Source: a virus | IMG/VR virus record: IMGVR_UViG_3300029893_000004 | Coordinates: 11,780 to 75,779 of that record | Strand: one strand, 5' to 3' | Length of the DNA: 64,000 bases | Shown here: piece after piece, positions 4,084 through 59,197 of the stretch | How the letters are laid out: the number at the start of each line of letters is the position of its first letter | How positions within the stretch are numbered: position 1 is the first letter of the stretch | Translations under genes and position numbers: made by a program | The notes under the pieces: model-generated | The model's input: the letters and a program-made list of their open reading frames with translations, nothing else | Told to the model about the DNA's origin: nothing | Database searches by the model: none

Positions 4084-5685
4084 CTATGCGGGGACGGTGT
4101 CGACGACGACGCGGAAGCCGTCGGCGACCATGTCGTCGAGCACGATCTGCAGGGCCTCGACACCGCCGCCCCCGATGTAGAACGGGTGCGCGGGGTCGAG
4201 CGTCGAGCCCGCCGTCGAGGGGCTTTCGAGGACGTAGCCGGAGCGGGTGGACAGTGGATGCGCAGCGGCGCCCGGCGCGGGCGGAGTCAGGCCCGCGTAC
4301 GTGGCCTCAGAGAAGCCCGGCACGTAGTGCGGCTGCGCGGCGTAGGCCGCTGGCAGCGCGACGTGCACGCGGATGATGCCCTCGTCTCGCTCCATCCAGA
4401 ACGGGAGCAGGTACCACGAGCGCGAGCCGGCCGCGTAGCTGGCTGCCTGCCAGTATGGCCCCTTGCCGGCGTTCAGGATGGCGGAGATCGGCGCGAGCAC
4501 GGACGTGACGCGGTGCACGCGCTGCGTGCCGTCGGTGTCCGTGATGCGCATCCAGCGGCCGTAGTGGTGCGCCTGGAAGTAGCCGCCCGGGTCGAGCACC
4601 GTGGCGCCGCTCACGCTCGATGACTGCGCCGAGCGAAACTGCGCCGTCCACGCGTCGCACACGCGGAAGATGCTGTACCACGTCCCGCGCGGCGACGTGG
4701 TGACCGCCTCGATGACCTCTCGGTAGGTGGCGTCGGTCATCCACGAGCCGCCACGCGGAACGCCGTAGGTCTCGCCCCAGGCGTCGAGCGCTTCGCCGGT
4801 GGCGAGGCTCACGTTCAGGTCGGCGCGGGCGTTCTCGAAGTACGAGCGCTGCCGCGTCCAGTCGACCACCTCGGCGCCCAGGTCCGCCGCGCGCGTCTCG
4901 TACGCGCTGCGCGTGAGCCCGGTAAGCGTGGTGGCCGTCTTGCCGGTGTACGTGATCTCCGGGTAGTCGAGCCCGGCGATGACCACCGTCCCGGCGTCCT
5001 GCATGCCGTAGGTGCTCTCGACGCTGGCCGTCGTGGCGTTGGTCGCCAAGCTGGCCGTCAGCCGCGTGCTGTAAACGCCGCCGAGCGTCGTCAGCTCCTC
5101 GCCCAGCGCCTTGACGGTCTCCGCCCGCACGCGCCGGTTGATGGTCGCGTCGGGCCCGTTGGAGTCGAGCAGCGGCTCGTCGTCGATGTCCTGCGGCCCC
5201 GTCGGGTAGACGGTCGCCGGGAAGCGCTTGCGCAGGCTGTAGACGTGCGACGGCCACTGCCGGCGCACCACCACGAGCGCGTCGGCGATCGTGGACTCGG
5301 CGCCGCCCTCGCCCGTGATGCGGATCGAGTACGTGCCGGTCTGCAGTGGGGGCGTGACGAACACGAGCCGCGTGCGCGTCTCGTCCGCCCAGCACGTGTA
5401 GCCCTCGCCCTGCACCAGTCCGTAGCACGGATGGTCGAGCGCGTCGGGGTCGCCGTAGAGCTCGACCACGTACGGGCCGGCGTAGGCCGAGAAGTCGCCG
5501 GTGAGCGTCAGGATCTCGCCGCCGTCGTCGGCAATGGTCGCCTGCGACAGCGAGCCGCCGACCAAGTACGACGGTGAGCCCCATCCGGTGTCTTCGGTGG
5601 CGCCGACGTCGTCGGGCGAGCCGAAGCCGGCGTCGTACCCGCCGAGGTCGTCAGGCGCCCCGAAGCCGGTCTCCTTGCCGCTCAT
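4084..5685 (-). CDS. Baseplate wedge-like protein (P2 gpI-like core) with Ig-like N-terminal region
   Basis: ATGEALDAWGETYGVPRG..MTDATYR motif typical of baseplate wedge proteins; located in the tail module. Confidence 0.6.
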   Translation of the reverse strand: MSGKETGFGAPDDLGGYDAGFGSPDDVGATEDTGWGSPSYLVGGSLSQATIADDGGEILTLTGDFSAYAGPYVVELYGDPDALDHPCYGLVQGEGYTCWADETRTRLVFVTPPLQTGTYSIRITGEGGAESTIADALVVVRRQWPSHVYSLRKRFPATVYPTGPQDIDDEPLLDSNGPDATINRRVRAETVKALGEELTTLGGVYSTRLTASLATNATTASVESTYGMQDAGTVVIAGLDYPEITYTGKTATTLTGLTRSAYETRAADLGAEVVDWTRQRSYFENARADLNVSLATGEALDAWGETYGVPRGGSWMTDATYREVIEAVTTSPRGTWYSIFRVCDAWTAQFRSAQSSSVSGATVLDPGGYFQAHHYGRWMRITDTDGTQRVHRVTSVLAPISAILNAGKGPYWQAASYAAGSRSWYLLPFWMERDEGIIRVHVALPAAYAAQPHYVPGFSEATYAGLTPPAPGAAAHPLSTRSGYVLESPSTAGSTLDPAHPFYIGGGGVEALQIVLDDMVADGFRVVVDTVPA

Positions 5686-5697
5686 GGCCGGCTCCTA

Positions 5698-7725
5698 TCA
5701 GTACGCCCAGCAGCCGAGCCGCCCGATCTTGCAGTCGGAGGTGCCCGACGCGCTCACGACGTAGATCTCGCCGAAGGTGTCGGAGCCGAGCGCCGACGTC
5801 GCGAACGTCACCTCGTAGCTCTGCGCGTTGGCAATGGTCGTGCCCGACGCGCCGCACTCGGCGGCCGGAATCGCGGCGTCCACGATGGTCGTGCCCGCCT
5901 CGTCCGTGAAGCGCAGCGAGCAGTTGGCGTCGTCGGCGGCCGATGCCACGCACCAGCCGGTGCAGCGCACGGTGATGGTCGCCGTGTCGAGGGGAATTGA
6001 CCACTGCGCGACGGCCGAGGCAGACACCGCGCTCGCGCTGGCCGTCACCTGCCCGCGGTCGGTGGCGATGAGCGCCGGCACCGCGTGCCGGTGCAGCGCG
6101 TCGGCGTTGCTCGAGGCGCCGCCGCGCAGCGTGTTCAGCTCTGCGGCCGTGGCGTTGACGGTCACGCCCGCGAGCTGGAAGGTGCCCGACAGGTTGGCGG
6201 TGCCCGCGACCGTGGTCGTCACGCCGCCCTTGCCGATGGAAATGGCCCGGGCCTCGGACGTGCCGATGGTGATGGCGCCGGCCGTGCCCGCGCCTCCGCC
6301 GTTGTCCGTGCCGGCCGGGCCGCCGTTGATGCTCACGTCGCCGCCGTCGGTCGCAGCACTGCCCGCCGAGCCGTCGCCGCCCCGTCCGCCCGAGATCGAG
6401 ATCGCGCCGGCGTCCGTGCCGGCCGTGGCACCGTCAGCCGCTCCGCCGTCGCCCGACGACAGGAACAGGCCGCCCGCGGTGCTGGCAGGCGTGGCGCCGG
6501 ACGCGGCTGCCGCGTCGCCCGCCCACAGGCGCAGTGCGTCGCCGTTGACGCCCGTCGAGCCGTTGGCGCCCTGGATGGTGAGCGTGGTTCCCGTGCCGTT
6601 GTTGATGGTGCGGGCGTACAGCGTCGCGGCCGCGGCCGTCGTGCTGCCGATGGCCCGGGCGTTGTCCGTGCTCCACAGGATGTTGCCGGTCATCGTGCCG
6701 CCGGCCAGGTCGAGGTAGGTGCTGTGCGTGTGCAGCGCCGCGGCGTCCGAGCCGTCCGTGAGGGTCGTGAGGTTGGCGGCCGTGACCGAAGCGCCGATGC
6801 CGTCGAGCGCTTGGTTGATCTCGGTGGCCGTCGCCGTGAGCTGCGTGGCGTTGATGAACACGTTGCCGACCAAGTAGACGCTGCCTGCCGCGCGGCCGAT
6901 GTTGGTCTTGCTCGCGAGCGTGGCGCCGATGTTGATCGTGCCCGCGCTGGCTGCGTCCAGGCCTAGGTTGCCCGTCGAGCCGATGGTTCGCGCGTAGATC
7001 GCGCTCCACGCCGCGGACGTCGTGCCGAAGTCAAACTGGTCGTCAAGGCTCACGAGCACGTCGCCCGCCAGCGTGCCGCCCGCCAGCGGCAGGTAGGGGC
7101 CGGTGGTGGTCAGGACGGTGTCGAGGTAGGTCAGGGCCTCCTCGACATTGTCGGCGTTGTTCAGGTTGGTCTTCGTGTCGGTGCCGACCATGAGCGCGCC
7201 CTCGGACGTCGCGGTCGTGTCCGCGAGGTCCGTGATCAGCGTGTCGTGCTCGCCGCGCAGCGCGTCGAGAGCGTCGGCCCAGGCGTTGACCAAGTCCCAG
7301 GTGTTGCGCTGGCCCTTCGCGGGCTTCACGAGCGCCTCGTGCTCGGTCGTGACCATGACGTTCGTGCAGGCCGCGGTGGGCTGCGCGATGAACGTGGTGC
7401 CGTTGGTCTCGGCGTCGGAGTCGGTCACCTGCAAGCAGAAGCGGTAGGTGCCCGGCAGGTCGGCCGTGAACGTGGGCGACGCGACGTTGCTGGCGCTGAG
7501 CGTGGCCGTCGAGCTGGGCGGTACGTCGACCGTCGTCCACGAGTAGGCCGTGATCGAGCCGCCGTCCGGGTCACTGCCCGAGCCCGAGAGCGTCACGAGC
7601 GCCGGGAGGCTTCCGTACGCGATCGTCTGGTCGGCGCCCGCGTTGGCGGTCGGGTTCGCGGCGCTCGCGAAGGCCGGCGCGAGGCAGATCGCGACGACGG
7701 CCGCTGCGCGGAGGGTGGTGTTCAT
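5698..7725 (-). CDS. PKD/K319L-like domain + Gly/Ala/Thr-rich fibre protein with signal peptide
   Basis: PTANAGADQTI...VTLSGSGSDPDG.SITAYSWT...PTFTADLPGTYRFCLQVTD (PKD); TATATEINQALDG and VNATAAELNTL fibre motifs. Confidence 0.7.
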   Translation of the reverse strand: MNTTLRAAAVVAICLAPAFASAANPTANAGADQTIAYGSLPALVTLSGSGSDPDGGSITAYSWTTVDVPPSSTATLSASNVASPTFTADLPGTYRFCLQVTDSDAETNGTTFIAQPTAACTNVMVTTEHEALVKPAKGQRNTWDLVNAWADALDALRGEHDTLITDLADTTATSEGALMVGTDTKTNLNNADNVEEALTYLDTVLTTTGPYLPLAGGTLAGDVLVSLDDQFDFGTTSAAWSAIYARTIGSTGNLGLDAASAGTINIGATLASKTNIGRAAGSVYLVGNVFINATQLTATATEINQALDGIGASVTAANLTTLTDGSDAAALHTHSTYLDLAGGTMTGNILWSTDNARAIGSTTAAAATLYARTINNGTGTTLTIQGANGSTGVNGDALRLWAGDAAAASGATPASTAGGLFLSSGDGGAADGATAGTDAGAISISGGRGGDGSAGSAATDGGDVSINGGPAGTDNGGGAGTAGAITIGTSEARAISIGKGGVTTTVAGTANLSGTFQLAGVTVNATAAELNTLRGGASSNADALHRHAVPALIATDRGQVTASASAVSASAVAQWSIPLDTATITVRCTGWCVASAADDANCSLRFTDEAGTTIVDAAIPAAECGASGTTIANAQSYEVTFATSALGSDTFGEIYVVSASGTSDCKIGRLGCWAY

Positions 7726-44606: not shown

Positions 44607-45971
44607 TCAGGCCGCCGCGCTTTCCGCAAAACGCCAGCCGGTATCGGCACTTAGCTCCGCCTCGCGCGCTTCACCCACAAGCAGGTTGCCACCAAACAGA
44701 GCGCGTCCGTCCTCGAACGGCACGATCTGCGGCCAGACGGCGCCGTCGTCGCAGCGGGTGAGCACCATGGCGCCCTGCTGCCAGTCGACGCGCGGCGTCG
44801 CGGCCGGCACCACGCCGTCAATGCGGCAGAGCGTGCCCGGGCTCCCGCTGAAGATGCGCGTGCGGCGCCCGCCCGGGCCGTGCAGCGTGCGCCACGCGAG
44901 CTCGCAGCGGTGGATGTGCCCGTAGACCTCGGAGTGCGTGGCCTCGCCCAGCACGGCGGCGGCCGTCGCGCCCGCGCGCTTGCGTACCGTGTGCCCGTGG
45001 TGCACACGCACCTGGTCCCACAGCCACACCTCGGCGCCGTAGGGCCCGTGGTACTCGACGTCGAGCGCCGCGAGCCCGAGCAGGCGCGGGATGCTCAGGA
45101 GCGCCGGCCCGCGCGTGTCGTCGGCCGGTCGCAGGCCCTCGGCCTCGGGCAGCATGGCGACGATCGCCTTCTCGATCCGGTGCTCGTGGTTGCCCTCCAG
45201 GTAGACGATGCGCGCCCCGGGCGCCGCTGTGCGCAGGCGCCCGATGAACCAGTGCAACTCGATCAGGCTCGCCTGCGTCGTGTACCGGAGCGCGGCGCTG
45301 GCCGTGTACTTGGTCGACCACGGCGCCAGGTCGAGCATGTCGCCCAGGAGCACGATGATCTCGGGCTGCAGGAGCTGCGCGAGCTGTACGGCCAAGTCGC
45401 AGGCGCGCCGGTCGTGCAGCGGGTCGAGCGTGCCGCGCTCCCGGTCGTGCCGGAACCCGTGCTGACTGTCGGGGACGATGAGCGCCTGTCGCAGCGCCCC
45501 GGGCTCGAGGGGCCGCGCCTCGCGCCGGAGGTGCGCGACCGGCTGCACCGGCTCGAGGCCGGGCGTGCGCTGTTGCAGATGCGCCGTCACCTGCCAGACG
45601 CGCCGGTCGCCGCTCACCCAGCTATTCGCCTTCCAGCGCTCGACCGCCCAGCGCTCCCGGTCGACGTCCGCGTCGCGCATCAGGTCGTCGAGCGTGTAGG
45701 GGCCCTCATCCGTCGCAGCTCCGGCCGTCGCCCCGTCGTCGGTCTCGCGCAGGGCAGCGGGGGCCGGCGGGGGCGGCTCCTCGGCGTCCTGGGGCACGCG
45801 CGGCGGCTTGATGCGCGTCGTCATCGGGCGGCCGCTCTTCGCGGCCTCGATGCGCCCGCGCAGGGTCGAGCGCGAGACGCCCAGCGCGCGGGCGGCGCTG
45901 GCGACGCACCCGTGGTGCGGCTCGGAGTCGACGAAGCGCAGGAGCGCCTCGCCGGTCAGGGAGTCGGCCAT
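44607..45971 (-). CDS. Calcineurin-like metallophosphoesterase with N-terminal HTH
   Basis: VPDSQH, LLGDMLD, LEGNHE, HHGH, YGHIHR; AARALGVSRSTLRGRI. Confidence 0.9.
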   Translation of the reverse strand: MADSLTGEALLRFVDSEPHHGCVASAARALGVSRSTLRGRIEAAKSGRPMTTRIKPPRVPQDAEEPPPPAPAALRETDDGATAGAATDEGPYTLDDLMRDADVDRERWAVERWKANSWVSGDRRVWQVTAHLQQRTPGLEPVQPVAHLRREARPLEPGALRQALIVPDSQHGFRHDRERGTLDPLHDRRACDLAVQLAQLLQPEIIVLLGDMLDLAPWSTKYTASAALRYTTQASLIELHWFIGRLRTAAPGARIVYLEGNHEHRIEKAIVAMLPEAEGLRPADDTRGPALLSIPRLLGLAALDVEYHGPYGAEVWLWDQVRVHHGHTVRKRAGATAAAVLGEATHSEVYGHIHRCELAWRTLHGPGGRRTRIFSGSPGTLCRIDGVVPAATPRVDWQQGAMVLTRCDDGAVWPQIVPFEDGRALFGGNLLVGEAREAELSADTGWRFAESAAA

Positions 45972-46003
45972 GGGGGGTGTCCTTTGTGGGAGAGGCGGGA
46001 GGG

Positions 46004-46564
46004 TCAGGCGGCCGAGCGCTCGATGCGCTTCAGCTTCTTGTAGTAGCTCGGATCTTCGGCCAGGTGGTCCATCGCGATCTCGCGCGCGATGGCCTCGTCG
46101 TCGGTGTGCTCGCGCTCGTGCGCGATGCCCTCGGCGAGCGCCTCGGGGTCGAAGTCCTCGGGGCACCGGCCGTCCGCCGTGCCGCCGCGGAGCTTCTCGC
46201 GCGGGCGCAGCGCCTTCTCCGTCGCCTTGTCCGCCCGCTCGACGATGGCCCGGGCCCACCGCCAGCCGGCGTCACCGCCCCAGAGGTGCCACGCCTGCCA
46301 GCCCTTGCCCTGCTCGTCCCACGTCTCGCCCTGCTTGTCGGGCTCGTGACGCGGGAAGTAGGCGGCGATGTGCCGGACCTTCGCCAGCGACACCGGGCGG
46401 CCGGACGCCAGCAGGCGAGCCGTTGCGAGGCCGACGGACGTGCCGCCGCGCTCGCTCGGGGGCTTGTCCTTGCGGACCTGCAAGGCGCGCCGGGCGGCGG
46501 CCTGGACGGCGAGGGGCGGGGTGTAGGAGTCGGTGGACTTGTGGAGGTGCAGGACGAGGCGCAT
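46004..46564 (-). CDS. Head-associated protein: RGGT.VG...LWGGDAG domain + DUF5661-like domain
   Basis: YTPP..V..AARRAL...RGGTSVG...WHLWGGDAGWRWA; DFDPEALAEGIAHEREHTDDEAIAREIAMDHLAEDPSYY. Confidence 0.8.
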   Translation of the reverse strand: MRLVLHLHKSTDSYTPPLAVQAAARRALQVRKDKPPSERGGTSVGLATARLLASGRPVSLAKVRHIAAYFPRHEPDKQGETWDEQGKGWQAWHLWGGDAGWRWARAIVERADKATEKALRPREKLRGGTADGRCPEDFDPEALAEGIAHEREHTDDEAIAREIAMDHLAEDPSYYKKLKRIERSAA

Positions 46565-46617: not shown

Positions 46618-49600
46618 TCACCTGCTCCGCCGCGTAGCGCGCCGCGTTGTTGCGCTGGCGCTGCCAAGCTCCGATGCTCGGTGCCCAAAGGGGCGGAGGT
46701 GCAGCACGAGGCGGAGAGACTTCTTGACCGTGCCAATCTTGTCCGCCACGGCGTCGAGCTTGTCGGCTGGGATGGTCCAGCGCCTGAAGTCGGCGTCCCA
46801 CCGGCCGCCCGCGGCGCGGATGGCGTCCTTGTGCGCGAACGTGTTGCCGGACAGGCCGATGCGATCGCCCAACTTCGTGACAACGATTCCGGCCCTCACG
46901 AGCTTGTCGAGCGCGTCCGCTCCGTCGCTCTCGACCGTCGCCTTGCCGCTGAGACCGCTCACGGGCGCAATCGCGGGCGCGGGCTTCTCCGCCTGCGCGA
47001 TCAGCCTGTCCGCCAAGTCGAAGGCGTCCGTGCTCTTGTTGTCCAGCCACCAGCCGGCGCTGGTCTGGCGCTTGAACGCCTCGGCTGCGTCCGCAAGGTC
47101 GTCCGGAGACTCCGCGGCGATGATCTGGAGCTTGCGCTCGCGCACGGCCTCGGCCGCGCGCACCTGCGCCTCGCTGCCGGTCAGCACCGGCATGGGGCCG
47201 ACGGCCTTGACCGCGTCGAGTATCGGCTTGAGCAGCGCCTCGCCGCGCTCTCGCACGGCCTGCAGCGCTTCCTCGTTCACGCCGCGTTGTGCGAGGATCT
47301 TGAGGTTCTCCGCGAAGACGTCGGCCCTCCCCTCCTTCGCGTTGCGCAGCGCCAAGTCGGCGAACTGGCCCTGCGCAAACGGCAGGGCCTTGATCGGGTC
47401 GGCGGGCTGGGCCTTGACGCCGACCTTCCGCGCCTCGCGCTCCCGGGCCGCCACCTGCTTCGGCGTGCCGTGCTTGCGCGCGGCCTCCAGGTCGCGCTTG
47501 GCCTTCTCGCGCGCCTTGCCGATGGCCTCCGCATGCTCCCGGTGCAGCATCGCGACGAACGCCGAGCGCTTGACCGTCTCGGTGTGCCCGCTCTCGTCGT
47601 GCCGGATGGTGACGTCGTCGCCGTCGACCTTCGTGACGTGGAAGTGCCCCTCCTTGCCCGCGTGCTTCACGCGGAACGCGGCGCCCTCGTGGATCGTGTC
47701 CTCGTGGCCGATGCCCTTGCCGGCGGTGACCGTGTAGTAGTACCTCCAGGGCCGCTTCGGGTTGCCCGTGCGCTCGCGCCGGATGTACTTGTGGCCGGCG
47801 CCCTTCGTGACGAGCTGGCTCAGGAACAGCAGGCGGCCGATCTGCTCGGGCAGTTCGTGCTCGATCGGGTGGGTGTGCATGCTCAGGCTCCGGAAAAGGC
47901 CCATCTGCCCGCGGCGGTCGCCCTGCTGGCCAGATGCCAGGTCGAGCAGGTCATCGGTGGACCGGCTGCCGCCCGCAAGGTCGCCCTGGCCGGCCGGGTT
48001 GCGCTTGGCGTGCGTCGCGAAGTCGCGGACGAACGCCGCCATCTGCACGGGCTTGTCGAGACGGTCGACCAGTACCTGCAGCAGTCGTTGCGACGTGCCG
48101 TCCAGCTTCGGCTTGCTCTCGAAGCCCTCGACGCCAAGCGCCGCGAAGCCGCCCGAGTCGCGGTCGTACTCGGAGACGCTCGTCAGGTTGCGCCGGCGCA
48201 TGTAGGCGTGCGCCTCGAGCGCCGTGCGCAGCGGCTTCTGCAGGTCGTGGCCGTTGCGAGCGGCCCGGACGAGGTGCGGCACGACGCCCGAGATCGCGGC
48301 CACGTGCTTCGGGAGCATGTCCGACAGGAGATCCGGATCGGGCAGGTAGTGCCCGACCAGCACCCGCTCGACGAACGTCTTGCCGTCCTCGTTCAGCTTG
48401 CCGTCCTTGCCGACGTACTGGCTGCGGTTGCGCCGATCGATGATGGCCTTGCCCTCGCGCGCGGACTGCAAGTCGCGCACGAAGCGAGCGCCTTCGCTGG
48501 ACGACAGGAACGCGTTGAGCGTGGGGTGCAAGGGCTCGCCAGTCTCCTTCGTGCGGTCCATGGCCGTCGCCAGCCCGTCAAGCATGGCCTCGGTCACCAT
48601 GCGGCCGCGCGCGACCTGGTCAACGCGTGGGTCCATGCCCTGGGTGAACGACTCGTTGTAGCGCCGAACGAGCACGCCCATCTGGGCACGGTCGGCGTCC
48701 GGGACGTCCACCTCGCGCACGAGGATGGGCGCCTTCATCGCGTCGACGTCGCCGTGCGCAAAGCCGAACTCGTGCGCGTGCTCTCTCAGGTAGTCCTTGT
48801 ACGCCTGCGCCTTGTCCGGCGCCTCGGCGTAGGCGAGCTGCAGGCTCATCGTGCGGCTGTTGCCGCCGAGCACCACGCCGCCGGCCGTCATGACGGGCGG
48901 GCCGTTGACCGCGTCCGGGTTCGTGTTCACGACGTAGGCCGGCTGCAGCTTGCGGGCGTTGGTGCGGACCTTGTCCTGCTCGGCCTTGTCCCGGTGGTAG
49001 GAGCGCTCCTGCACGCCCTCTGGGTAGTCCTCGCGCTGCTTGAATCCCTTGGTCGGGTCGTGGCTGGCCACGGCGTCCCCGGCCTCCACGAGCCGATAGC
49101 GGGCGCGCTGCGGCGTCGGGTTGCCCTCGGCGTCTGCGACGAACACGGTCGTTGCCGCGCCCTGGATGCCGCGCGCGTCCGGCTTGCGGGCGCCTGCTCG
49201 CTCTGCCCGCAGCGCGTCCCATCGTGCCTGCAGATCGTGCGCCTTGCCGACTTCCGGCACGTCGCGCAGGCCGGGGTACGCGTGCGCGAGCCGCTCGAGG
49301 CTCATGGACACGCGCGCGCCTAGCATGGCGGTCGCGTAGTCGATCATTGCCCGCCGCGCTGCCTCGTTGGAGCCGGCCGCCTCGATGGCGCCGAGCAGCG
49401 CCTCCGCCTTGCCCAGCTCCTCGGCCGCGTCGCGCCGCATCTCGACCAGCCGCTCGTCGAAGTCGGCCTTCGGCAGTCGCAGCGTTGCGGCCTCGACCAC
49501 GTGCGCGGCCCGCACCTTCGGCGCGCCGTCCGCGCCGCGCAGGTTCTCCGCGCCCTTGGTGATCTGCCGCGCGTTCGCGCTCACGCGCCGGCCGATCGTC

Positions 49601-50154
49601 GCGTCCGACGCCATGGCCAACAGGGCGCGCTTGGCGTCCTGCTCCCAGCCGGGCCGCGCCGCCAGGAAGCTCACGATGCGCTGGGCGTGCTCCGGGGGCA
49701 CCTTGGCCGCCGCGAAGCGCTGTGCGTACGCCTTCGACGTCGCCTGCGCGTCGTCGTGGTTGACACGCTCCGCCTCCCGCACGAACCGGCGCAGCATGCG
49801 CTCGGCGCCCGCCTCGAAGCGCGAGCGGTACACGGCCGCCATCTTCGCGTGCAGGTCGGCGTGCGTCAGCTCCTGCTCCTGGCCCGTCTCGCGGTGGCGC
49901 ACGCGCACCTTCTCATGGTCCGCGTGCACGACGTCGAGCACGCCGCCGGCGCGCGTGTTGATGCTCTCGCCCTCGACCGCGTGGCGCGCCGTCGACGCAT
50001 CGCTGTAGTAGTAGCGGTAGCCGCCGCCCGGCTTCGGGACGCGCCGGATGTACTTGTGGCCGGTGGCCTTGCCGAGCGCCTGCAGCGCAAACAGGCGGGC
50101 GCCTTCGGCCTCGGGCAGCTCGACCCATCTGGGCCTGGCGAGAGTGAGCCTCAC
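46618..50154 (-). CDS. Large polyvalent-type protein with ddrB-like ParB domain (putative head cargo)
   Basis: ARYRLVEA..AVASHD...YPEGVQERSY...VVNTNPDAVNGPPV...VLGGNSRTMSL; two GHKYIRR modules; QMGLF. Confidence 0.75.
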   Translation of the reverse strand: MRLTLARPRWVELPEAEGARLFALQALGKATGHKYIRRVPKPGGGYRYYYSDASTARHAVEGESINTRAGGVLDVVHADHEKVRVRHRETGQEQELTHADLHAKMAAVYRSRFEAGAERMLRRFVREAERVNHDDAQATSKAYAQRFAAAKVPPEHAQRIVSFLAARPGWEQDAKRALLAMASDATIGRRVSANARQITKGAENLRGADGAPKVRAAHVVEAATLRLPKADFDERLVEMRRDAAEELGKAEALLGAIEAAGSNEAARRAMIDYATAMLGARVSMSLERLAHAYPGLRDVPEVGKAHDLQARWDALRAERAGARKPDARGIQGAATTVFVADAEGNPTPQRARYRLVEAGDAVASHDPTKGFKQREDYPEGVQERSYHRDKAEQDKVRTNARKLQPAYVVNTNPDAVNGPPVMTAGGVVLGGNSRTMSLQLAYAEAPDKAQAYKDYLREHAHEFGFAHGDVDAMKAPILVREVDVPDADRAQMGVLVRRYNESFTQGMDPRVDQVARGRMVTEAMLDGLATAMDRTKETGEPLHPTLNAFLSSSEGARFVRDLQSAREGKAIIDRRNRSQYVGKDGKLNEDGKTFVERVLVGHYLPDPDLLSDMLPKHVAAISGVVPHLVRAARNGHDLQKPLRTALEAHAYMRRRNLTSVSEYDRDSGGFAALGVEGFESKPKLDGTSQRLLQVLVDRLDKPVQMAAFVRDFATHAKRNPAGQGDLAGGSRSTDDLLDLASGQQGDRRGQMGLFRSLSMHTHPIEHELPEQIGRLLFLSQLVTKGAGHKYIRRERTGNPKRPWRYYYTVTAGKGIGHEDTIHEGAAFRVKHAGKEGHFHVTKVDGDDVTIRHDESGHTETVKRSAFVAMLHREHAEAIGKAREKAKRDLEAARKHGTPKQVAAREREARKVGVKAQPADPIKALPFAQGQFADLALRNAKEGRADVFAENLKILAQRGVNEEALQAVRERGEALLKPILDAVKAVGPMPVLTGSEAQVRAAEAVRERKLQIIAAESPDDLADAAEAFKRQTSAGWWLDNKSTDAFDLADRLIAQAEKPAPAIAPVSGLSGKATVESDGADALDKLVRAGIVVTKLGDRIGLSGNTFAHKDAIRAAGGRWDADFRRWTIPADKLDAVADKIGTVKKSLRLVLHLRPFGHRASELGSASATTRRATRRSR
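46692..46951. repeat. 260-bp direct repeat, copy B
   Basis: About 93% identical to 33011-33270 by manual alignment. Confidence 0.9.
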
Positions 50155-50336
50155 GGCACCACCTCCACGGCGCCCGCGTCCGGCGCGCACTGGACCACGT
50201 CGGGCGCCGGGCGCTCGGCGGGCGGCTCGTAGCTGCCGAAAATGTCGTCGAGCGGCACGCCCAGCGCGAGCCCGACGGCTGCGGCAAGGAGCGCGATCGC
50301 GGTGCCAATCTGCTTGGCGCGGATGCGGTTGGTCAT
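50151..50336 (-). CDS. Small membrane protein
   Basis: IGTAIALLAAAVGLALGV TM; GTGA coupling to the large gene. Confidence 0.55.
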   Translation of the reverse strand: MTNRIRAKQIGTAIALLAAAVGLALGVPLDDIFGSYEPPAERPAPDVVQCAPDAGAVEVVP

Positions 50337-50536
50337 GGCGGGCTCCGAAACGCGGCGAGGCGCCTCGACGGGATGCCGGGCGCCTCGGTGCGTGGGGTGT
50401 CATGCTCGCGCGCGAACGGCGCAAGCGGGGCTGCTCGGGAGTTTAGCAGGAGTAGAGCGCGGAGTCGAGTGCAGGAGGGGTCAGCGGGAGGCCAGCGCGT
50501 CCGTCAGCGCCCGGTGCCCCGGGCCTCGTCAGTGGG

Positions 50537-53727: not shown

Positions 53728-54156
53728 TCAACCCCGCTCGTAGATCCGCCGCACCGTGATCACCTCCACCAGCCGCGGCTTGCGCTCGGGCTCGCGCGGC
53801 GGCACGGGGTCGCTCTGCCGCTCCATCATCCGTCGCCTGCGACGCGCGGGCTGTTCCTCGCGCGCGTTGCCGGGCTGCGCCGGGGGCTGCCAGCCGTCGT
53901 GCGGCGGACGAACGGTGATGAGCTGCGGGAGCAACCCCTCCTCCGACGGCACCGCCACGATGAAGCGCCAGCGCGGGCCCGTGCCTCGGTGGACGTACAG
54001 CAGCGCGCCCGAGTCGAGCTGCTTGCGCAGGTCTGCCGTCTGCGACGCCGAGATCAGGCGGGTAAGCGCCCCCTCGTAGCTCATGCCGCCGCCCGTCAGC
54101 TCGATGAAGCGCTCGACGGCGTGCGGGGTGATGAACCAGCGGCCGGATGCGGTCAT
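53728..54156 (-). CDS. Small protein with a WFITPHAVERF motif (RelE/DUF4258-like fold candidate)
   Basis: ATGA-coupled to the radical SAM gene; GGAGG RBS. Confidence 0.6.
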   Translation of the reverse strand: MTASGRWFITPHAVERFIELTGGGMSYEGALTRLISASQTADLRKQLDSGALLYVHRGTGPRWRFIVAVPSEEGLLPQLITVRPPHDGWQPPAQPGNAREEQPARRRRRMMERQSDPVPPREPERKPRLVEVITVRRIYERG

Positions 54157-55616
54157 GGGGTCCTCCGTTCGTTGGCGCGGCGCCAGATAGCCGCCTCTGC
54201 CTTCGCGAGCAACGCCGAACGCACGCTACGGACGCGCGACCATGGCACCTCTGCGTCGAGCGGGATGTCCGCGATCACGTCGCGGTCGTAGTCGATGCCG
54301 GCCGTCATGGCCCACGCGCGGACGCGCTCCCATCGGCGATCGGGCGATCCTTCCGCGGCCACGTCTCCACGCGGCCGCGCTGCGAGGTAGGCGAGCCCGT
54401 CGCCCCGTCTCATACGCTTCCACACGTCGGCCTCAGTCGTGTGCTGGTCGACCATGACCGACCGCCACAGCGGCTCGCTCTTCTGCATCGCCGTGCGTAG
54501 CCGTCTGTACTCGCGCGCAGCCGTGATAGACGGCCCGACCCCGAAGCGCTGGAGCGGCGTCAGCGGCTGCGGCGACAGCGGCGTGATCTTGACGTCGCAC
54601 GCCTTCCAGTGCCGGAATCCGGCGCGGCGGATGATCGACAGCAGATCGCCGGCGTGCCTGCGGTCGCTGGCTGTTTCGGTCGGCAGTCCCGCGATGAGGA
54701 ACATGCGCCCCATGCGGTAGCCCTCCTCCTGACTGCGGGCGAGCGCCGCCGCGATGTCTCCGTCCGTCATCGGCTTGCCGATCATCGTCCGGAGCCGCTC
54801 CGTCACGCCCTCGACGCCGAACCGAATGCGGCCCTTGTCGGCCCGGCTCGGGCGGCTCTTCAGGTACGGGCGGATCCGCGTGCTGCGCCAGCGCGGCGTG
54901 TAGGTTCCGTCCGCCACGATTTCATCGAACCAGTCGATCCCGTCGGTGTCGGGTGCCGACAGCACGGCGCGGCCCTTGCCGTAGGTGGCCTCGATCTGGC
55001 GCAAGTGCGCCTCGGCGTCCTCCCGGCTGCGCTGCCAGTACGTGTACGCCCACCCGATCTCGCAGAACGTGCAGGACGAACGGCACCCGCGGGCCACCTC
55101 CAGATAGACGGTCTCGCCCACGCCCTCCTTGCTGCCCTGCGAGTAGTGCGCCCGGCGCTGGCTCGGGTCGGTCGCGAGCCGGAACGTCACCTCGCGTGCA
55201 TCGCCGGTGTCGATCCCCTCGACCGAGGCGAGGCGGTCCCGGTCAGGCGCGGCCCCGATGATCTCGCCCATCGCGTCATCAGCTTCGCCAACGAAACACG
55301 CGTCAAAGACGTCGAGGAACGGCGACGTGTTGACGACCGCGTGCCCTCCGAGGATGTAGCACGTCCGCCCACCACGCGCCGTGCGCTCCATCGACTCGCC
55401 GACAGCCTCAAAGAAGTCGCGGATGCGCCATGCGTTGCCGGCGTACGGCAGCGAGACGAGCCACACGTCAGGCCGCGGACGCGGGGTCGTGTCGCCGAGA
55501 GGAACGTAGGTCACCGCATGCCCCGCCCTCTCAGCGCCGTCCATGACGATGCGGATTCCCCACCCGGCGAGTTGATCGGCGTCTCCCGCGAGCTCCGTTG
55601 CGTAGACCGTCTTCAT
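54153..55616 (-). CDS. Radical SAM enzyme with B12-binding-like N-terminal region
   Basis: LEVARGCRSSCTFC (CxxxCxxC); ILGGH...FVGEAD; RFGVEGVTERLR..IGKP; MFLIAGLPTET..D. Confidence 0.92.
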   Translation of the reverse strand: MKTVYATELAGDADQLAGWGIRIVMDGAERAGHAVTYVPLGDTTPRPRPDVWLVSLPYAGNAWRIRDFFEAVGESMERTARGGRTCYILGGHAVVNTSPFLDVFDACFVGEADDAMGEIIGAAPDRDRLASVEGIDTGDAREVTFRLATDPSQRRAHYSQGSKEGVGETVYLEVARGCRSSCTFCEIGWAYTYWQRSREDAEAHLRQIEATYGKGRAVLSAPDTDGIDWFDEIVADGTYTPRWRSTRIRPYLKSRPSRADKGRIRFGVEGVTERLRTMIGKPMTDGDIAAALARSQEEGYRMGRMFLIAGLPTETASDRRHAGDLLSIIRRAGFRHWKACDVKITPLSPQPLTPLQRFGVGPSITAAREYRRLRTAMQKSEPLWRSVMVDQHTTEADVWKRMRRGDGLAYLAARPRGDVAAEGSPDRRWERVRAWAMTAGIDYDRDVIADIPLDAEVPWSRVRSVRSALLAKAEAAIWRRANERRTP

Positions 55617-56314
55617 GCGGCGCCTCCGTCGGGAAGGAAGACCGGACACCGGCGCGAGGGGTGCCAGTACGGAGCGCGGAGCCCGGCCAGCCGCACGTGC
55701 CCGCGAACGCCCGGCCACGATGTCGGCAAGGCGCGCACTGGGCGACCTTGCCAGACGCAGGATCGATCATCGTCGATCGGCTCCACCGTCCACTCGAGCA
55801 CCTCGCCGGACCCGTGGTTGCGCACGCGTCCAAGGTGGTGGACGTCACCGAGCAGATCGCGCACGGCGTCGATGTCGCCGAGCGCGTACCACTCGATCGA
55901 CTCCGCGAGCCGAGCAGGAAGAGCGATGTCCACCGCCTTGCGGGGCCCCGCTGCGATGTTCTCCGTCCCTCCGTCCGTGTAGCGGGCGTAGGCATCCATC
56001 GGCGGACGTCGGCGCACCGCTCGCGTCTCCTCTGCCGTCCATCTCGCGTGCATGCTCGACCCGCACCATCCCCACACGAGTCCGTCGTCGTCGAGCAGGG
56101 CGGCACTTGCGCCCGCCGGCGCCGCACATGCCCATCGCGCGAGAGGCACGTCGACGTCGATCGGGCGCGCCGTGTGTTGTGGCAGCGGCAGTGCGTCCCG
56201 CTCGTCTCGCGGCAGGCGCCCAAAGGCAGCAGCGGCAAGGATCCCGTCGATGTGCGAGATCCCGTCCGTCGTCACGACGCTGTTCGCCATGCGCGCGGTG
56301 ATGCGCATGGGCAC
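55613..56314 (-). CDS. csf3: Type IV CRISPR Cas5-like RAMP (Csf3)
   Basis: HIDGILAAA...GPRK....P.....IEWYALGD...VRDLL..VHHLGRVRNHGSGEVLEWTVE...RAPYWHP. Confidence 0.82.
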   Translation of the reverse strand: MPMRITARMANSVVTTDGISHIDGILAAAAFGRLPRDERDALPLPQHTARPIDVDVPLARWACAAPAGASAALLDDDGLVWGWCGSSMHARWTAEETRAVRRRPPMDAYARYTDGGTENIAAGPRKAVDIALPARLAESIEWYALGDIDAVRDLLGDVHHLGRVRNHGSGEVLEWTVEPIDDDRSCVWQGRPVRALPTSWPGVRGHVRLAGLRAPYWHPSRRCPVFLPDGGAA

Positions 56315-56337
56315 ATGCCCCACCTCCCGCCGGACAA

Positions 56338-57720
56338 TCACGACAACCTCCCGAGCGCCCCAAGGATGTCCCGCCGGTGCTCGCGCAGGTGCGTCTCGTA
56401 TCTCGCGTGCATAGCCCGCGCAGCGCCGTCGTTCTCGCCGAGTTCCGGCGGAAGCTCCGCCCGGCGCCACTCGGGATAGCGCAGCGCGATCGGCTCGCTC
56501 GCCTGAATGGTCAGCGCAGCCTCACCGTTGCCGACCGCCTTGCCGGCGCCGATGAACGGCAGGCGCATCCACTCGTTGACCGCCGCCCACAGCGCGGCCT
56601 CTTCGATCTCGGTGAGGTCCTTCGTGTAGACGCGGCAGACGAGCTGCGTCCCCGCAGCCAGCACCTGGCGCTCGTAGATCATCTGTTGCGAGTCGCCCTT
56701 GTCGGTGTGCTCTTTGGCCTCGCGCTTGGCGAGGGCCTCGCGCTTGCCGTCCTCCAGCAACCGCATCTCGCCGGCCGTCAGGTAGCGCTGCACCTCCTGC
56801 TGCCGCAGCGGGTCGTGCCGCGTGCCCATCTGCACGTCGTACAGGTGGCCCACCGGGACGCGCAACAGCCGACTGTCGATCGCGTCGCTCGGATCGATGC
56901 GATCGGCGTGCTCGGCGCACACGGGGCGCGCGTCGCCGACGGAGATCCGGCTCTCGGCCATGAAGTTGCCGAGTGCGCCTCCGCACAGGCTCAGGACCGG
57001 GATGTGCTCACAGATCGCCCGGTAGGCGCCCAGGTCGATCGCGCTGCCCTTCGTCGTCAGGGCCCCTCCCGACCACAGCAAGTGCACGGCCGCCTTGCTC
57101 AGAGACCCGTCGGGCACCTCCAGCACGCGCAGCATGTGCCGCACGCCGGGCTCGCGGATGACGACGTGCTTGATGGCGTTGCCCGTCACGTAGGGCACGT
57201 CCTGCGGCTCACCGTCGACGATGAAGCGCCCGGTGCGGAACAGCGAGACGTTGCCCTCGGTGCCCTGCCCGTGGTGCAGGGCGGAGAGCATCGTGAAGGT
57301 GAACTGACAGCGGAGAGACCGACGGGTGGTCGGCGCGGGTGCGCTCGGCGTGTCGAGCTCGACGAACAGGGCGGCGTCGGAGTCGCGTTGCCTGGCTAAC
57401 TGCCGATCAAGCCACTCCCGGTGCCGATCATCCCATTCCGCAAGCGGGACGAATACGTACTTGTCCCGCGGCTCGCAGCCACCCCACCGCGGATTGACCT
57501 TGCCGGTCCCTGGATCGGCCATCCATCCGCCGATGGATCGGGCGAGCCGATGCGCTCGCGCAACGCACGACTCGCCAGTCTCCGCTCCATGGCGCCCCGA
57601 CTCGTATACGATGTGCTCCACGTCCGCGAGCCATCCCGCGCAATTGTCGTGCGAATACTCCTCCATCGCGTCGAGGATCATGCGTTCGATGTCTTCACGA
57701 CTAATGTCGATGCTGCTCAC
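56338..57720 (-). CDS. csf2: Type IV CRISPR Cas7-like backbone (Csf2) with about 125-aa N-terminal fusion
   Basis: TMLSALHHG, VPYVTGNAIKH.VIR, LWSGG, IP.LSLCGG, QQMIYERQVLAAGTQL, IGAGKAVGNG. Confidence 0.88.
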   Translation of the reverse strand: MSSIDISREDIERMILDAMEEYSHDNCAGWLADVEHIVYESGRHGAETGESCVARAHRLARSIGGWMADPGTGKVNPRWGGCEPRDKYVFVPLAEWDDRHREWLDRQLARQRDSDAALFVELDTPSAPAPTTRRSLRCQFTFTMLSALHHGQGTEGNVSLFRTGRFIVDGEPQDVPYVTGNAIKHVVIREPGVRHMLRVLEVPDGSLSKAAVHLLWSGGALTTKGSAIDLGAYRAICEHIPVLSLCGGALGNFMAESRISVGDARPVCAEHADRIDPSDAIDSRLLRVPVGHLYDVQMGTRHDPLRQQEVQRYLTAGEMRLLEDGKREALAKREAKEHTDKGDSQQMIYERQVLAAGTQLVCRVYTKDLTEIEEAALWAAVNEWMRLPFIGAGKAVGNGEAALTIQASEPIALRYPEWRRAELPPELGENDGAARAMHARYETHLREHRRDILGALGRLS

Positions 57721-58106
57721 AGGGCACCTCCTTTCTGCGCCCGTGCCTCATCGCGGGCCGCGCGCACTTGGACTGCGATGTAGGCCGCCTCGTCCTTCAC
57801 GAGCCGGCAGAAGCGGCGGAAGGCCGCGGGATCATAAAGGTCTTCACCAATCGAAGAGATTGAGTTGCTCGCTCCCTCGAAGAACTGCGGGATTTGCAAC
57901 GCCCGGCGCAGACCCTCCACCATCTGGCCGTAGGTGGTCGCCATCATCGCCCGCGCCTTGAACGCCGCCGGCATGCGCTCCCAGTACGTCCGCGGGCTCA
58001 CTTTGTCCCAGTCCACGGACTTGTGCACGGCTGTCATCAGCCGCACGGCCAGCGCGCGCAGGTCGTCGTCCGTCAAGGACTGCGGCACACTCGTCTCTCC
58101 ACTCAT
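57717..58106 (-). CDS. cas11: Cas11-like small subunit
   Basis: All-helical 129 aa between csf1 and csf2, as in type IV-B; RTYWERM...LRRALQIP; GTGA coupling to csf2. Confidence 0.72.
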   Translation of the reverse strand: MSGETSVPQSLTDDDLRALAVRLMTAVHKSVDWDKVSPRTYWERMPAAFKARAMMATTYGQMVEGLRRALQIPQFFEGASNSISSIGEDLYDPAAFRRFCRLVKDEAAYIAVQVRAARDEARAQKGGAL

Positions 58107-58779
58107 CGGTTCCTTCCTTCCGCAGCAGGCTCGCCGCGAGGCGCAGAACGGGACCGCCCCGGACTGCGCGCAGGTGTTGATCGTGCTCGCGCCAGACGTC
58201 GACGCCGGCCCGGTGCAGCGCATTGACGTCGGGCTGGCCCGTCAAGATGTGCTCACGGGTGTAGCCCGCGACGTAAAGCGCAGCGGCGCGGTAGGCCACA
58301 CGCGCGAAGTGCAGCGGCTCCGCCGCCACCGTCTCCCGCTCCATCCGAATCTGCCACGCGCCCGTGCCCTCGTTGACGGGCGTGAACGGCAGCAGGTGGA
58401 TCTGCCCCGAGTCCGCCAGCGCGAGGAACCACCGGCAGTCCGGCGGGTCGAGCAGGTAGCGCCACGCCGGCGCCGTCTCGCTCTTGTTGAAGCGGTGCCA
58501 CCCGTCCCGCTCGCTCCACGCGTGGCTGAACATGCGCTGCGGCGGGTTGTCCTTGCTGGGCTTGCCCGCCATCACGGCGAGACACCCGGCGCACACCCAC
58601 TCCGACCACGGCGCCCGGGCCTCGGCCTGCGACGTGAAGCTGGGCCCGATCGCCTTGCCCGTCGCCTGGCCGGACGTGCACGCGCCGCCGCACGTGTAGC
58701 AGAGGGCGTCGCAGCGCACGCAGCCCGGCGGGGGCGGGAGGGGGCAAGCGGCCGCGACGATCTGAGGCGCTGTCAGCAT
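57844..58779 (-). CDS. csf1: Type IV CRISPR Cas8-like large subunit (Csf1)
   Basis: CYTCG...F......S.WVCAGC Zn finger; YLLDPP..WFLALADSGQIHLLPFTPVN; AGYTREHILTG. Confidence 0.85.
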   Translation of the reverse strand: MLTAPQIVAAACPLPPPPGCVRCDALCYTCGGACTSGQATGKAIGPSFTSQAEARAPWSEWVCAGCLAVMAGKPSKDNPPQRMFSHAWSERDGWHRFNKSETAPAWRYLLDPPDCRWFLALADSGQIHLLPFTPVNEGTGAWQIRMERETVAAEPLHFARVAYRAAALYVAGYTREHILTGQPDVNALHRAGVDVWREHDQHLRAVRGGPVLRLAASLLRKEGTDEWRDECAAVLDGRRPARAGRAADDSRAQVRGLGQSEPADVLGAHAGGVQGAGDDGDHLRPDGGGSAPGVANPAVLRGSEQLNLFDW

Positions 58780-58889: not shown

Positions 58890-58941
58890 AATGTAGCGCC
58901 GCGTTACCTGCCGATCAAGCGAAAAAGTAACGTGGCGCTAC
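58890..58941 (-). promoter_or_regulatory. csf operon promoter with two operators
   Basis: TTGATC-N17-TACATT; GTAGCGCCGCGTTAC at 58893-58907 and GTAACGTGGCGCTAC at 58927-58941. Confidence 0.8.
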
Positions 58942-59144
58942 TTTTCTTGGAACGCCCGCAGGATCGCGGGGTTGTCGGCCAGCACGCGTGCCATGTGCAT
59001 GGCCCACTCGGGCACCGGATGCGTGCCGAGCTCCCACCGCGTCACGCTTTGCCGGTGTACGCGCATGGCGTCGGCGAGCTCGTGCTGCTTCAGGCCCATG
59101 CGCTCGCGGAGCTGGCGGAACACGTCCGCTTGATTCTCTTCCAT
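58938..59144 (-). CDS. XRE/Cro HTH repressor (Aca-like position)
   Basis: FRQLRERMGLKQHELADAMRVHRQSVTRWELG; GGAGGTG RBS. Confidence 0.92.
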   Translation of the reverse strand: MEENQADVFRQLRERMGLKQHELADAMRVHRQSVTRWELGTHPVPEWAMHMARVLADNPAILRAFQEK

Positions 59145-59167
59145 GGGGTTCACCTCCTGCCCCCCCC

Positions 59168-59197
59168 ATGGTAACGCGGCGCTACGTCCGCCGTCAA
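59168..59197 (-). promoter_or_regulatory. HTH gene promoter with third operator copy
   Basis: TTGACG-N18-TACCAT; GTAACGCGGCGCTAC at 59171-59185. Confidence 0.7.

Follow-up and report, generated by a model that had tools for sequence, protein, structure and literature searches.

A type IV-B-like csf operon coupled to a radical SAM gene in a metagenomic tailed phage, with a candidate clamp-binding tail on Csf1

Introduction

What does a type IV-B-like Csf effector do in a phage when it comes without a CRISPR array and the gene coupled to it encodes a radical S-adenosylmethionine (SAM) enzyme instead of a CysH-like protein? The question is raised by an operon in a 64,000-nt stretch of viral DNA, positions 11,780–75,779 of IMG/VR record IMGVR_UViG_3300029893_000004, which is called the window below. 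Type IV-B is the only CRISPR-Cas subtype with a solved complex but without a known function. Reviews describe its CysH-like partner as strictly conserved and as key to the puzzle of that function (PMC8175902). The solved IV-B complex carries heterogeneous RNA (PMC7937560), and type IV systems act in conflicts between mobile elements (10.1101/780106, PMC12669027).

A preliminary description of the window, made from its sequence and open reading frames, proposed that a radical SAM enzyme has taken the place of CysH in this operon and either modifies nucleic acid or serves to sequester host crRNAs. Analysis of the window and its relatives shows that the csf genes and the radical SAM gene travel together, and that Csf1 ends in a motif of the kind that binds the sliding clamp. 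The Csf particle may therefore carry an enzyme to replicating DNA, a reading that is weighed below against four others.

Results

Operon coordinates are on the minus strand. At 53728–58779 the gene order is csf1-cas11-csf2-csf3-radical SAM-orf142. Stop and start codons overlap at cas11/csf2 (GTGA), csf3/radical SAM (ATGA) and radical SAM/orf142 (ATGA). The preliminary description had called the csf order type IV-B and had joined csf3 to the radical SAM gene by an overlapping stop and start. Both statements hold, the first after canonical IV-B loci were read for comparison. It had also found four csf-type genes and a radical SAM gene, as is correct, but csf1 runs 263 nt into cas11 and does not end before it. 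The genes of the operon, placed at 54153–58779, are real, but the operon goes on into orf142 and its Csf2 has a 134-aa extension.

The Csf identity of the four proteins was confirmed by PADLOC matches to all of them, by NCBIfam matches for Csf1, Csf2 and Csf3 and by PDB matches for Csf2 and Csf3. The NCBIfam models for Csf1, Csf2 and Csf3 (TIGR03114/5/6) gave specific matches, below equivalog cutoffs. Csf1 (57844–58779, 311 aa) is the Cas8-like large subunit, with matches to PADLOC typeIV_Cas8 (3.9e-24, aa 22–222) and TIGR03114 (5e-14). It consists of a core (residues 1–222) with a four-cysteine zinc motif, whose C27, C30, C63 and C66 are invariant in an alignment of homologues, and a tail of about 89 aa. 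Cas11 (57717–58106, 129 aa) is the small subunit (PADLOC typeIV_Cas11, 2.7e-5), and cas11 homologues are present in 7 related loci. Csf2 (56338–57720, 460 aa) is the Cas7 backbone subunit (PADLOC typeIV_Cas7, 1.1e-50, aa 135–413), with its Cas7 core at aa 135–460. Its best PDB sequence match, and the sole solved Csf2 matched, is the IV-B Csf2 of 7jhy (7.5e-7). Csf3 (55613–56308, 231 aa) is the Cas5 subunit (PADLOC typeIV_Cas5, 3e-36), and the solved chains that it matches are type IV-A Csf3 (7xfz, 3.4e-9). The operon thus has the csf1, csf2 and csf3 that define a type IV effector, and the cas11-like gene between csf1 and csf2 that defines subtype IV-B.

The radical SAM enzyme has 22 relatives at 46–58% identity, all metagenomic and none informatively named. 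Context could be read at 13 loci, the window and 12 further (L002/L006, L004, L005, L007–L011 and L018–L021). In 13/13 of these, csf1, csf2 and csf3 lie beside the radical SAM gene in phage-like DNA, so the csf3–radical SAM adjacency first noticed in the window is recurrent. Neighbouring genes in the relatives encode RusA, RecU, YqaJ, helicases, integrases, MazG, ThyX and a sliding clamp. A pattern scan of 185,579 species genomes returned no relative of the enzyme, scans of viral and of metagenome contigs added one locus each, and GenBank phages gave one weak partial match only. In a Csf2 tree of 13 rows, seven loci, the window among them, group in a supported clade (98/96). Loci L010 and L007 stand apart, outside this main clade, so the enzyme goes with two Csf lineages that have diverged from each other. 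In this tree, which has no IV-A or IV-C outgroup, the canonical IV-B rows are the sister group of the main radical SAM clade. At L010 (4062–5039) and L007 (4310–5350), an in-frame fusion joins csf1 to a helical, Cas11-like C-terminal half; the resulting proteins have 325–346 aa and no clamp motif, whereas in the main clade the two genes are overprinted.

The source record is a linear viral contig of 82,095 bp with a CheckV completeness of 54%. No match to PAPS_reduct (PF01507; PAPS, 3′-phosphoadenosine 5′-phosphosulfate), Cas1, Cas6_C or DinG-type Helicase_C_2 was detected in it, and no CRISPR-like array was found in the window or the record. An 89%-complete relative of 43 kb likewise has no PAPS-reductase gene and no array, and no array-like repeats were found on the other related contigs. 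An Rfam scan gave one chance-level match only. The absence of an array, cas6, dinG, cas1/2 and cysH, stated for 64 kb in the preliminary description, therefore extends to the 82-kb record, which is about half a genome and does not prove absence from the whole phage. The record is in this respect like other IV-B loci, and three relatives do carry cas6.

These three are L011, L020 and L021. The closest relative of the radical SAM enzyme (58% identity) is encoded in L011, where csf3 is followed by a Cas6-like gene, a gene with a PAPS-reductase domain (1.6e-11) and the radical SAM gene. L020 has a clear Cas6 (PF09559, 3.6e-27) between csf2 and csf3, and in L021 the radical SAM gene is followed by one of the Cas6e family (1e-16). 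Some members of the clade may therefore process RNA. The cysH-like accessory gene typical of IV-B is absent from the record and from 12 of the 13 loci. L011 keeps one beside its radical SAM gene, so the two enzymes are not mutually exclusive. The idea of a radical SAM enzyme "instead of CysH" thus stands in a weaker form: the enzyme usually replaces CysH and does not exclude it.

Two contig ends carry further features. In L020 a gene (5401–5991) overlaps the stop of the radical SAM gene and has weak methyltransferase-like matches (N6_Mtase, 0.011); it is cut by the contig end. At the end of L005 (11869–11967), downstream of the radical SAM gene by about 2.4 kb and past an integrase and a Thg1-like gene, a 25-nt direct repeat is present as two identical copies 74 nt apart. 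A CRISPR array may begin with this pair, or the pair may be an attachment-site repeat or belong to host DNA.

The radical SAM gene (54153–55616) encodes a 487-aa protein that is identical to a database protein. It matches Pfam Radical_SAM (PF04055) at 29.6 bits, against a cutoff of 29.5, and Radical_SAM_N2 at 8e-6. An AlphaFold model (predicted local distance difference test, pLDDT, 92.8) has an N-terminal Rossmann-like domain of the B12-binding type, a radical SAM barrel and a helical C-terminal domain. The CxxxCxxC motif for the [4Fe-4S]/SAM cluster (C178, C182 and C185; 55062–55085) holds the sole invariant cysteines in 22 homologues. The protein thus has the cluster motif in a partial triose-phosphate isomerase (TIM) barrel that marks the superfamily. 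The preliminary description had read CRSSCTFC as the motif of a full radical SAM enzyme, and the Pfam match, the fold matches and the invariance of CxxxCxxC agree with it.

Solved folds that match the model are MgmA, TsrM, TokK, CysS, OxsB, AprD4 and MiaB/RimO, with template modelling (TM) scores of about 0.5. The top match is MgmA (9ccb, E 8e-15). Closer neighbours among predicted structures are uncharacterised, namely MJ0966 (TM 0.69/0.75) and unnamed radical SAM clusters (TM 0.73–0.80). The Pfam B12-binding model does not match the phage enzyme, whose N-terminal domain is recognised by Radical_SAM_N2 only; the modelled domain has a B12-type fold. The B12-binding-like N-terminus that had been seen by eye is accordingly borne out by predicted fold and structure matches. 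A methylthiotransferase of the MiaB/RimO type was considered and rejected, as no cysteines outside CxxxCxxC are conserved and the C-terminal domain is helical where a TRAM domain would be expected. Thiomethylation, one of the activities put forward earlier, is unlikely because no auxiliary-cluster cysteines are conserved among the 22 homologues.

Outside the csf-linked relatives, the nearest sequence family is TIGR03960 (24–29% identity, E 1e-16 to 1e-11), uncharacterised and common across bacteria, whose partner is DUF2344/TIGR03936. TIGR03960 proteins are often fused to DUF2344 (PF10105), a widespread domain with 8,706 cluster representatives at E≤0.001. The predicted fold of DUF2344 (P0024 residues 619–790, pLDDT 96.5) resembles the catalytic domain of TruA, Pus1 and Pus3 (TM 0.6–0.66), and its alignment has no invariant aspartate. 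We know of no published annotation of this pseudouridine-synthase-like fold. The modelled fold hints that the wider clade has nucleic-acid substrates. It also hints that the members of this clade work on RNA together with a binding partner of their own, for which the Csf proteins could stand in here. DUF2344 was also tried as a counterpart of the repeat-associated mysterious protein (RAMP) subunits and rejected, as a profile comparison with Csf3 was empty and the fold is pseudouridine-synthase-like.

The C-terminal tail of Csf1 is overprinted on cas11 in another frame (57844–58106, 263 nt). The csf1/cas11 overlap is 257–302 nt in 7 measured loci, and the same overlap is present in three loci found later. 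Codon usage in the overlap follows cas11: G+C content at third codon positions (GC3) there is 0.86 when read in the cas11 frame, against 0.49 for csf1. The tail ends in a motif of the beta-clamp-binding type, Q-L-N-L-F (57853–57867), followed by D-W-stop. Bacterial clamp-binding motifs of replisome and repair proteins have the consensus QL[S/D]LF. The Csf1 tail ends Q-x-[N/S/D]-L-F in 10/13 loci, and Q, L and F are invariant in these 10, whereas the Cas11 residues that overlap them vary.

Since DNA so rich in G+C would be expected to leave an alternative frame open, conservation was tested codon by codon. In the first seven loci aligned, Q, L and F of the Csf1 frame are each conserved in 7/7 and W in 5/5. 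The Cas11 residues read from the same bases as Q, L and F are conserved in only 4/7, 3/7 and 6/7, and elsewhere in the overlap the Csf1 frame never exceeds 5/7 identity. In one locus a rare AGG arginine codon in cas11 preserves the Csf1 glutamine. By this codon comparison, the clamp motif is shown to be under selection in the Csf1 frame.

A docking model was made of the clamp dimer encoded at L009 and the last 40 residues of the Csf1 from the same locus. It scored 0.64, and the best control scored 0.03; this mark is reached by 51 of 78 solved complexes and by 2 of 108 mismatched pairs. The predicted interface joins Csf1 residues 320–329 to the C-terminal pocket region of the clamp. The model supports binding of the Csf1 tail to the sliding clamp.

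The motif was rejected as a general IV-B trait, since canonical Csf1 proteins (221–245 aa) have no tail. In the canonical IV-B locus of a Rhodovastum atsumiense plasmid, it is Cas11 (L013, 3474–3941) that ends in a similar string, FQLELFEAA; only 1 of the 49 homologues of this Cas11 ends in this way.

In L002, L004, L005, L008, L009, L018 and L020, automatic gene calling misses csf1 or cas11, because the two genes overlap by about 260–300 nt. The overlap has probably hidden this family from surveys, and those based on called proteins would under-count it.

Two parts of the operon are peculiar to this phage. The first 134 aa of Csf2 (57319–57720) form an acidic N-terminal extension (pI 5.1) without a Pfam or Atlas match. 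Related Csf2 proteins are 260–338 aa long, and none of the 12 carries it. GC3 of csf2 is 0.76 in the extension and 0.92 in the Cas7 core. The extension would be displayed in several copies, because Cas7 polymerises. The last gene, orf142 (53728–54156), whose ATG overlaps the radical SAM stop, encodes a basic 142-aa protein (pI 10.9). It has no Pfam, PHROG or PADLOC match and no homologue in the related loci, and on this comparison is specific to this phage.

The window has a G+C content of about 70%, and its minus strand holds nearly all genes. It carries tail and baseplate genes, a DnaB helicase, a DNA methylase fragment and a large terminase, and so belongs to a tailed phage. Four studies of subsurface and rock metagenomes contain operon DNA, in nine sequencing runs altogether. 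Similarity comparisons of TerL and DnaB pointed to no clear host. The operon lies directly downstream of terL and a short control region (58893–59185), in which a perfect 16-nt inverted repeat (58893–58908 and 59170–59185) brackets a small open reading frame (ORF) between terL and csf1. This ORF had no family match in domain and family profile searches. A 22-codon ORF upstream of csf1 terminates 7 nt inside the csf1 start. Relatives L019, L021, L008, L009 and L004 have helix-turn-helix genes upstream of csf1. Elsewhere in the window, a 1268-aa protein (46618–50424, minus strand) has a ddrB-like ParB domain (3.6e-19) and is followed by a metallophosphoesterase-like gene (44607–46259). In L004 a metallophosphoesterase likewise adjoins the csf–radical SAM operon.

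Discussion

The reading that we favour, at about an even chance, is that a clamp-tethered Csf ribonucleoprotein brings the radical SAM enzyme to nucleic acid at replication forks. A radical SAM enzyme with a B12-type fold would have become a dedicated accessory of the Csf complex, in most cases at the expense of the CysH-like protein. Homology with the solved IV-B complex suggests that Csf2 and Cas11 assemble into a filament on RNA, with Csf3 and Csf1 as its caps. Because the disordered Csf1 tail ends in a beta-clamp-binding pentapeptide, it should hold the particle at sliding clamps, at replication forks or primer ends. Translation from the shared, coupled message would supply the enzyme in stoichiometric amounts. 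Nucleic acid held or scanned by the filament would then be altered covalently by a radical derived from SAM, possibly with the help of cobalamin, as C-methylases use it. The most likely target would be nascent phage DNA, and RNA a possible one. The phage could benefit by protection of its own genome or by a handicap to competing elements. A more specific form is tentative and on the doubtful side: riding on the replisome, the platform would use the enzyme to give newly synthesised phage DNA a novel modification of radical origin, C-alkylation for example.

The favoured reading draws on the Csf identity of the proteins, the coupled genes, the invariant end of the Csf1 tail, the docking model and the link of the nearest sequence family to DUF2344. 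It also draws on the csf–radical SAM link, which holds in all 13 loci across two Csf2 lineages with no relative of the enzyme found outside such loci in 185,579 species genomes, and on the replication and recombination genes that surround the operon in the relatives. The CysH-like gene beside the radical SAM gene in L011 is what would be expected if both enzymes serve the same process.

Of its parts, the gene link, the coupling of the genes, selection on the motif and the folds are shown, whereas assembly of the complex, clamp binding itself, recruitment of the enzyme, its substrate and the gain to the phage are inferred. Several points weigh against this reading. The closest solved folds, at 13–16% identity, act on protein (MgmA) or on small molecules (TsrM, TokK and AprD4). 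The clamp motif is missing from 3/13 loci (L019, L010 and L007), no clamp (DnaN) is encoded in the 82-kb record or in the 89%-complete relative, and the docking success may reflect memory of solved clamp–peptide complexes. With the record 54% complete, a cysH gene or an array could sit in the unseen half. The heterogeneous RNA in the solved IV-B complex argues against precise guiding (PMC7937560), and cas6 in three relatives suggests a processed guide in some members.

The last of these points leads to guide-dependent interference. Csf would load crRNA-like guides, from a Cas6-processed phage transcript or from host arrays, and the radical SAM enzyme would stand in for the missing nuclease, so that DNA or RNA of competitors or the host that matches the guide is damaged or marked. 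The bona fide cas6 genes in 3/13 loci fit such a system, as do the known role of type IV systems in mobile-element conflicts (10.1101/780106, PMC12669027) and the possible repeat pair at the L005 contig end. No array is found in the 82-kb record, the 43-kb relative or any related contig, though, cas6 is missing from the window and 9 other loci, and the RNA of the solved IV-B complex is heterogeneous (PMC7937560). We regard guide-dependent interference as unlikely.

The enzyme could also act on protein, its substrate being the sliding clamp, some other protein of the replisome or a subunit of Csf, as MgmA C-methylates a glutamine of methyl-coenzyme M reductase. MgmA is the top solved fold, NCBIfam gives weak matches to the MgmA and MJ_1487 families, and a clamp tether would place the enzyme beside replisome proteins. 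Protein modification is nonetheless distinctly unlikely, since the TM score is only about 0.5 at some 15% identity, the nearest sequence family is linked to a pseudouridine-synthase-like domain, and the related loci share no precursor peptide next to the radical SAM gene.

Phages are known to target the sliding clamp. A multi-copy Csf particle might serve host take-over, mainly by blocking or redirecting the host clamp through the Csf1 tail, with the radical SAM enzyme secondary or regulatory. The conservation of the motif in 10 loci and the docking model that passed would agree with this. Clamp sequestration would, however, leave the strictly conserved radical SAM gene unexplained in 13/13 loci, including the three without the motif, and Csf1 is a single-copy subunit in class 1 complexes. 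We consider it very unlikely.

A chance neighbourhood, with the radical SAM gene as a separate auxiliary gene of the phage that happens to adjoin the csf genes, is hardly credible: accessory genes in phage variable regions do shuffle often and a direct interaction is only proposed, but the adjacency persists at every locus despite Csf2 divergence to about 33% identity and wholly different flanking genes, the stop/start overlap joins the gene to csf3, and no family member was found away from csf genes in the 185,579 species genomes scanned.

If a Csf platform riding on the replisome does modify newly synthesised phage DNA in the specific way set out above, this would be the first function for type IV-B and the first Cas-scaffolded DNA hypermodification. 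The CysH-like protein and the radical SAM enzyme would then be alternative chemistries on one delivery platform. A partner that is swapped, and once joined, by a radical SAM enzyme points to the Csf particle as a platform that accepts different enzymes. This partner also offers a trackable activity, through SAM cleavage, cluster mutants and nucleoside mass spectrometry. The candidate clamp-binding tail is a second, independent and cheap handle and points to DNA replication as the place of action. Among the papers searched, which did not include subscription-only ones, none was found in which type IV-B or Csf proteins are connected with radical SAM enzymes or clamp-binding motifs, and none that reports a clamp-binding motif on any Cas protein.

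Comparison with known systems

The operon shares its four effector genes and their order with the IV-B system of Mycobacterium sp. JS623 (PDB 7JHY; PMC7937560, PMC8175902). Both lack an array and adaptation genes, and both are on a mobile element. Where JS623 and canonical IV-B loci have the "ubiquitous" CysH-like protein, a radical SAM enzyme is encoded here. The Csf1 described here also differs from theirs in its overprinted tail of about 90 aa with the clamp motif, and Csf2 in its 134-aa N-terminal extension. Array-less csf1-cas11-csf2-csf3 sets are present in Skermania phage SPI1 (KR011061, Orf40–44) and in Mycolicibacterium, Rhodovastum and Thermococcus nautili plasmids too. Their Csf2 proteins are 23–28% identical to that of the window. 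All of them have a PAPS-reductase-family gene and none has a radical SAM gene, and between their csf1 and cas11 there is at most an overlap of a few bases.

The phage enzyme shares the Radical_SAM_N2 N-terminal domain with TIGR03960 proteins, but it lacks DUF2344 and travels with Csf proteins. It has a Rossmann-like domain and a barrel in common with class B radical SAM enzymes (MgmA 9ccb, TsrM 6wte, TokK 7kdx, CysS, OxsB and AprD4). Identity to these is only 13–16% at a TM score of about 0.5, and cobalamin use by the phage enzyme is putative. The Csf1 motif, a C-terminal Q-x-[NSD]-L-F on a flexible tail, is like the clamp-binding pentapeptide QL[S/D]LF of replisome and repair proteins, and differs in being carried by a CRISPR-Cas large subunit. 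A functional analogy to the proposed role is the replication-coupled methylation of DNA by PCNA-bound DNMT1.

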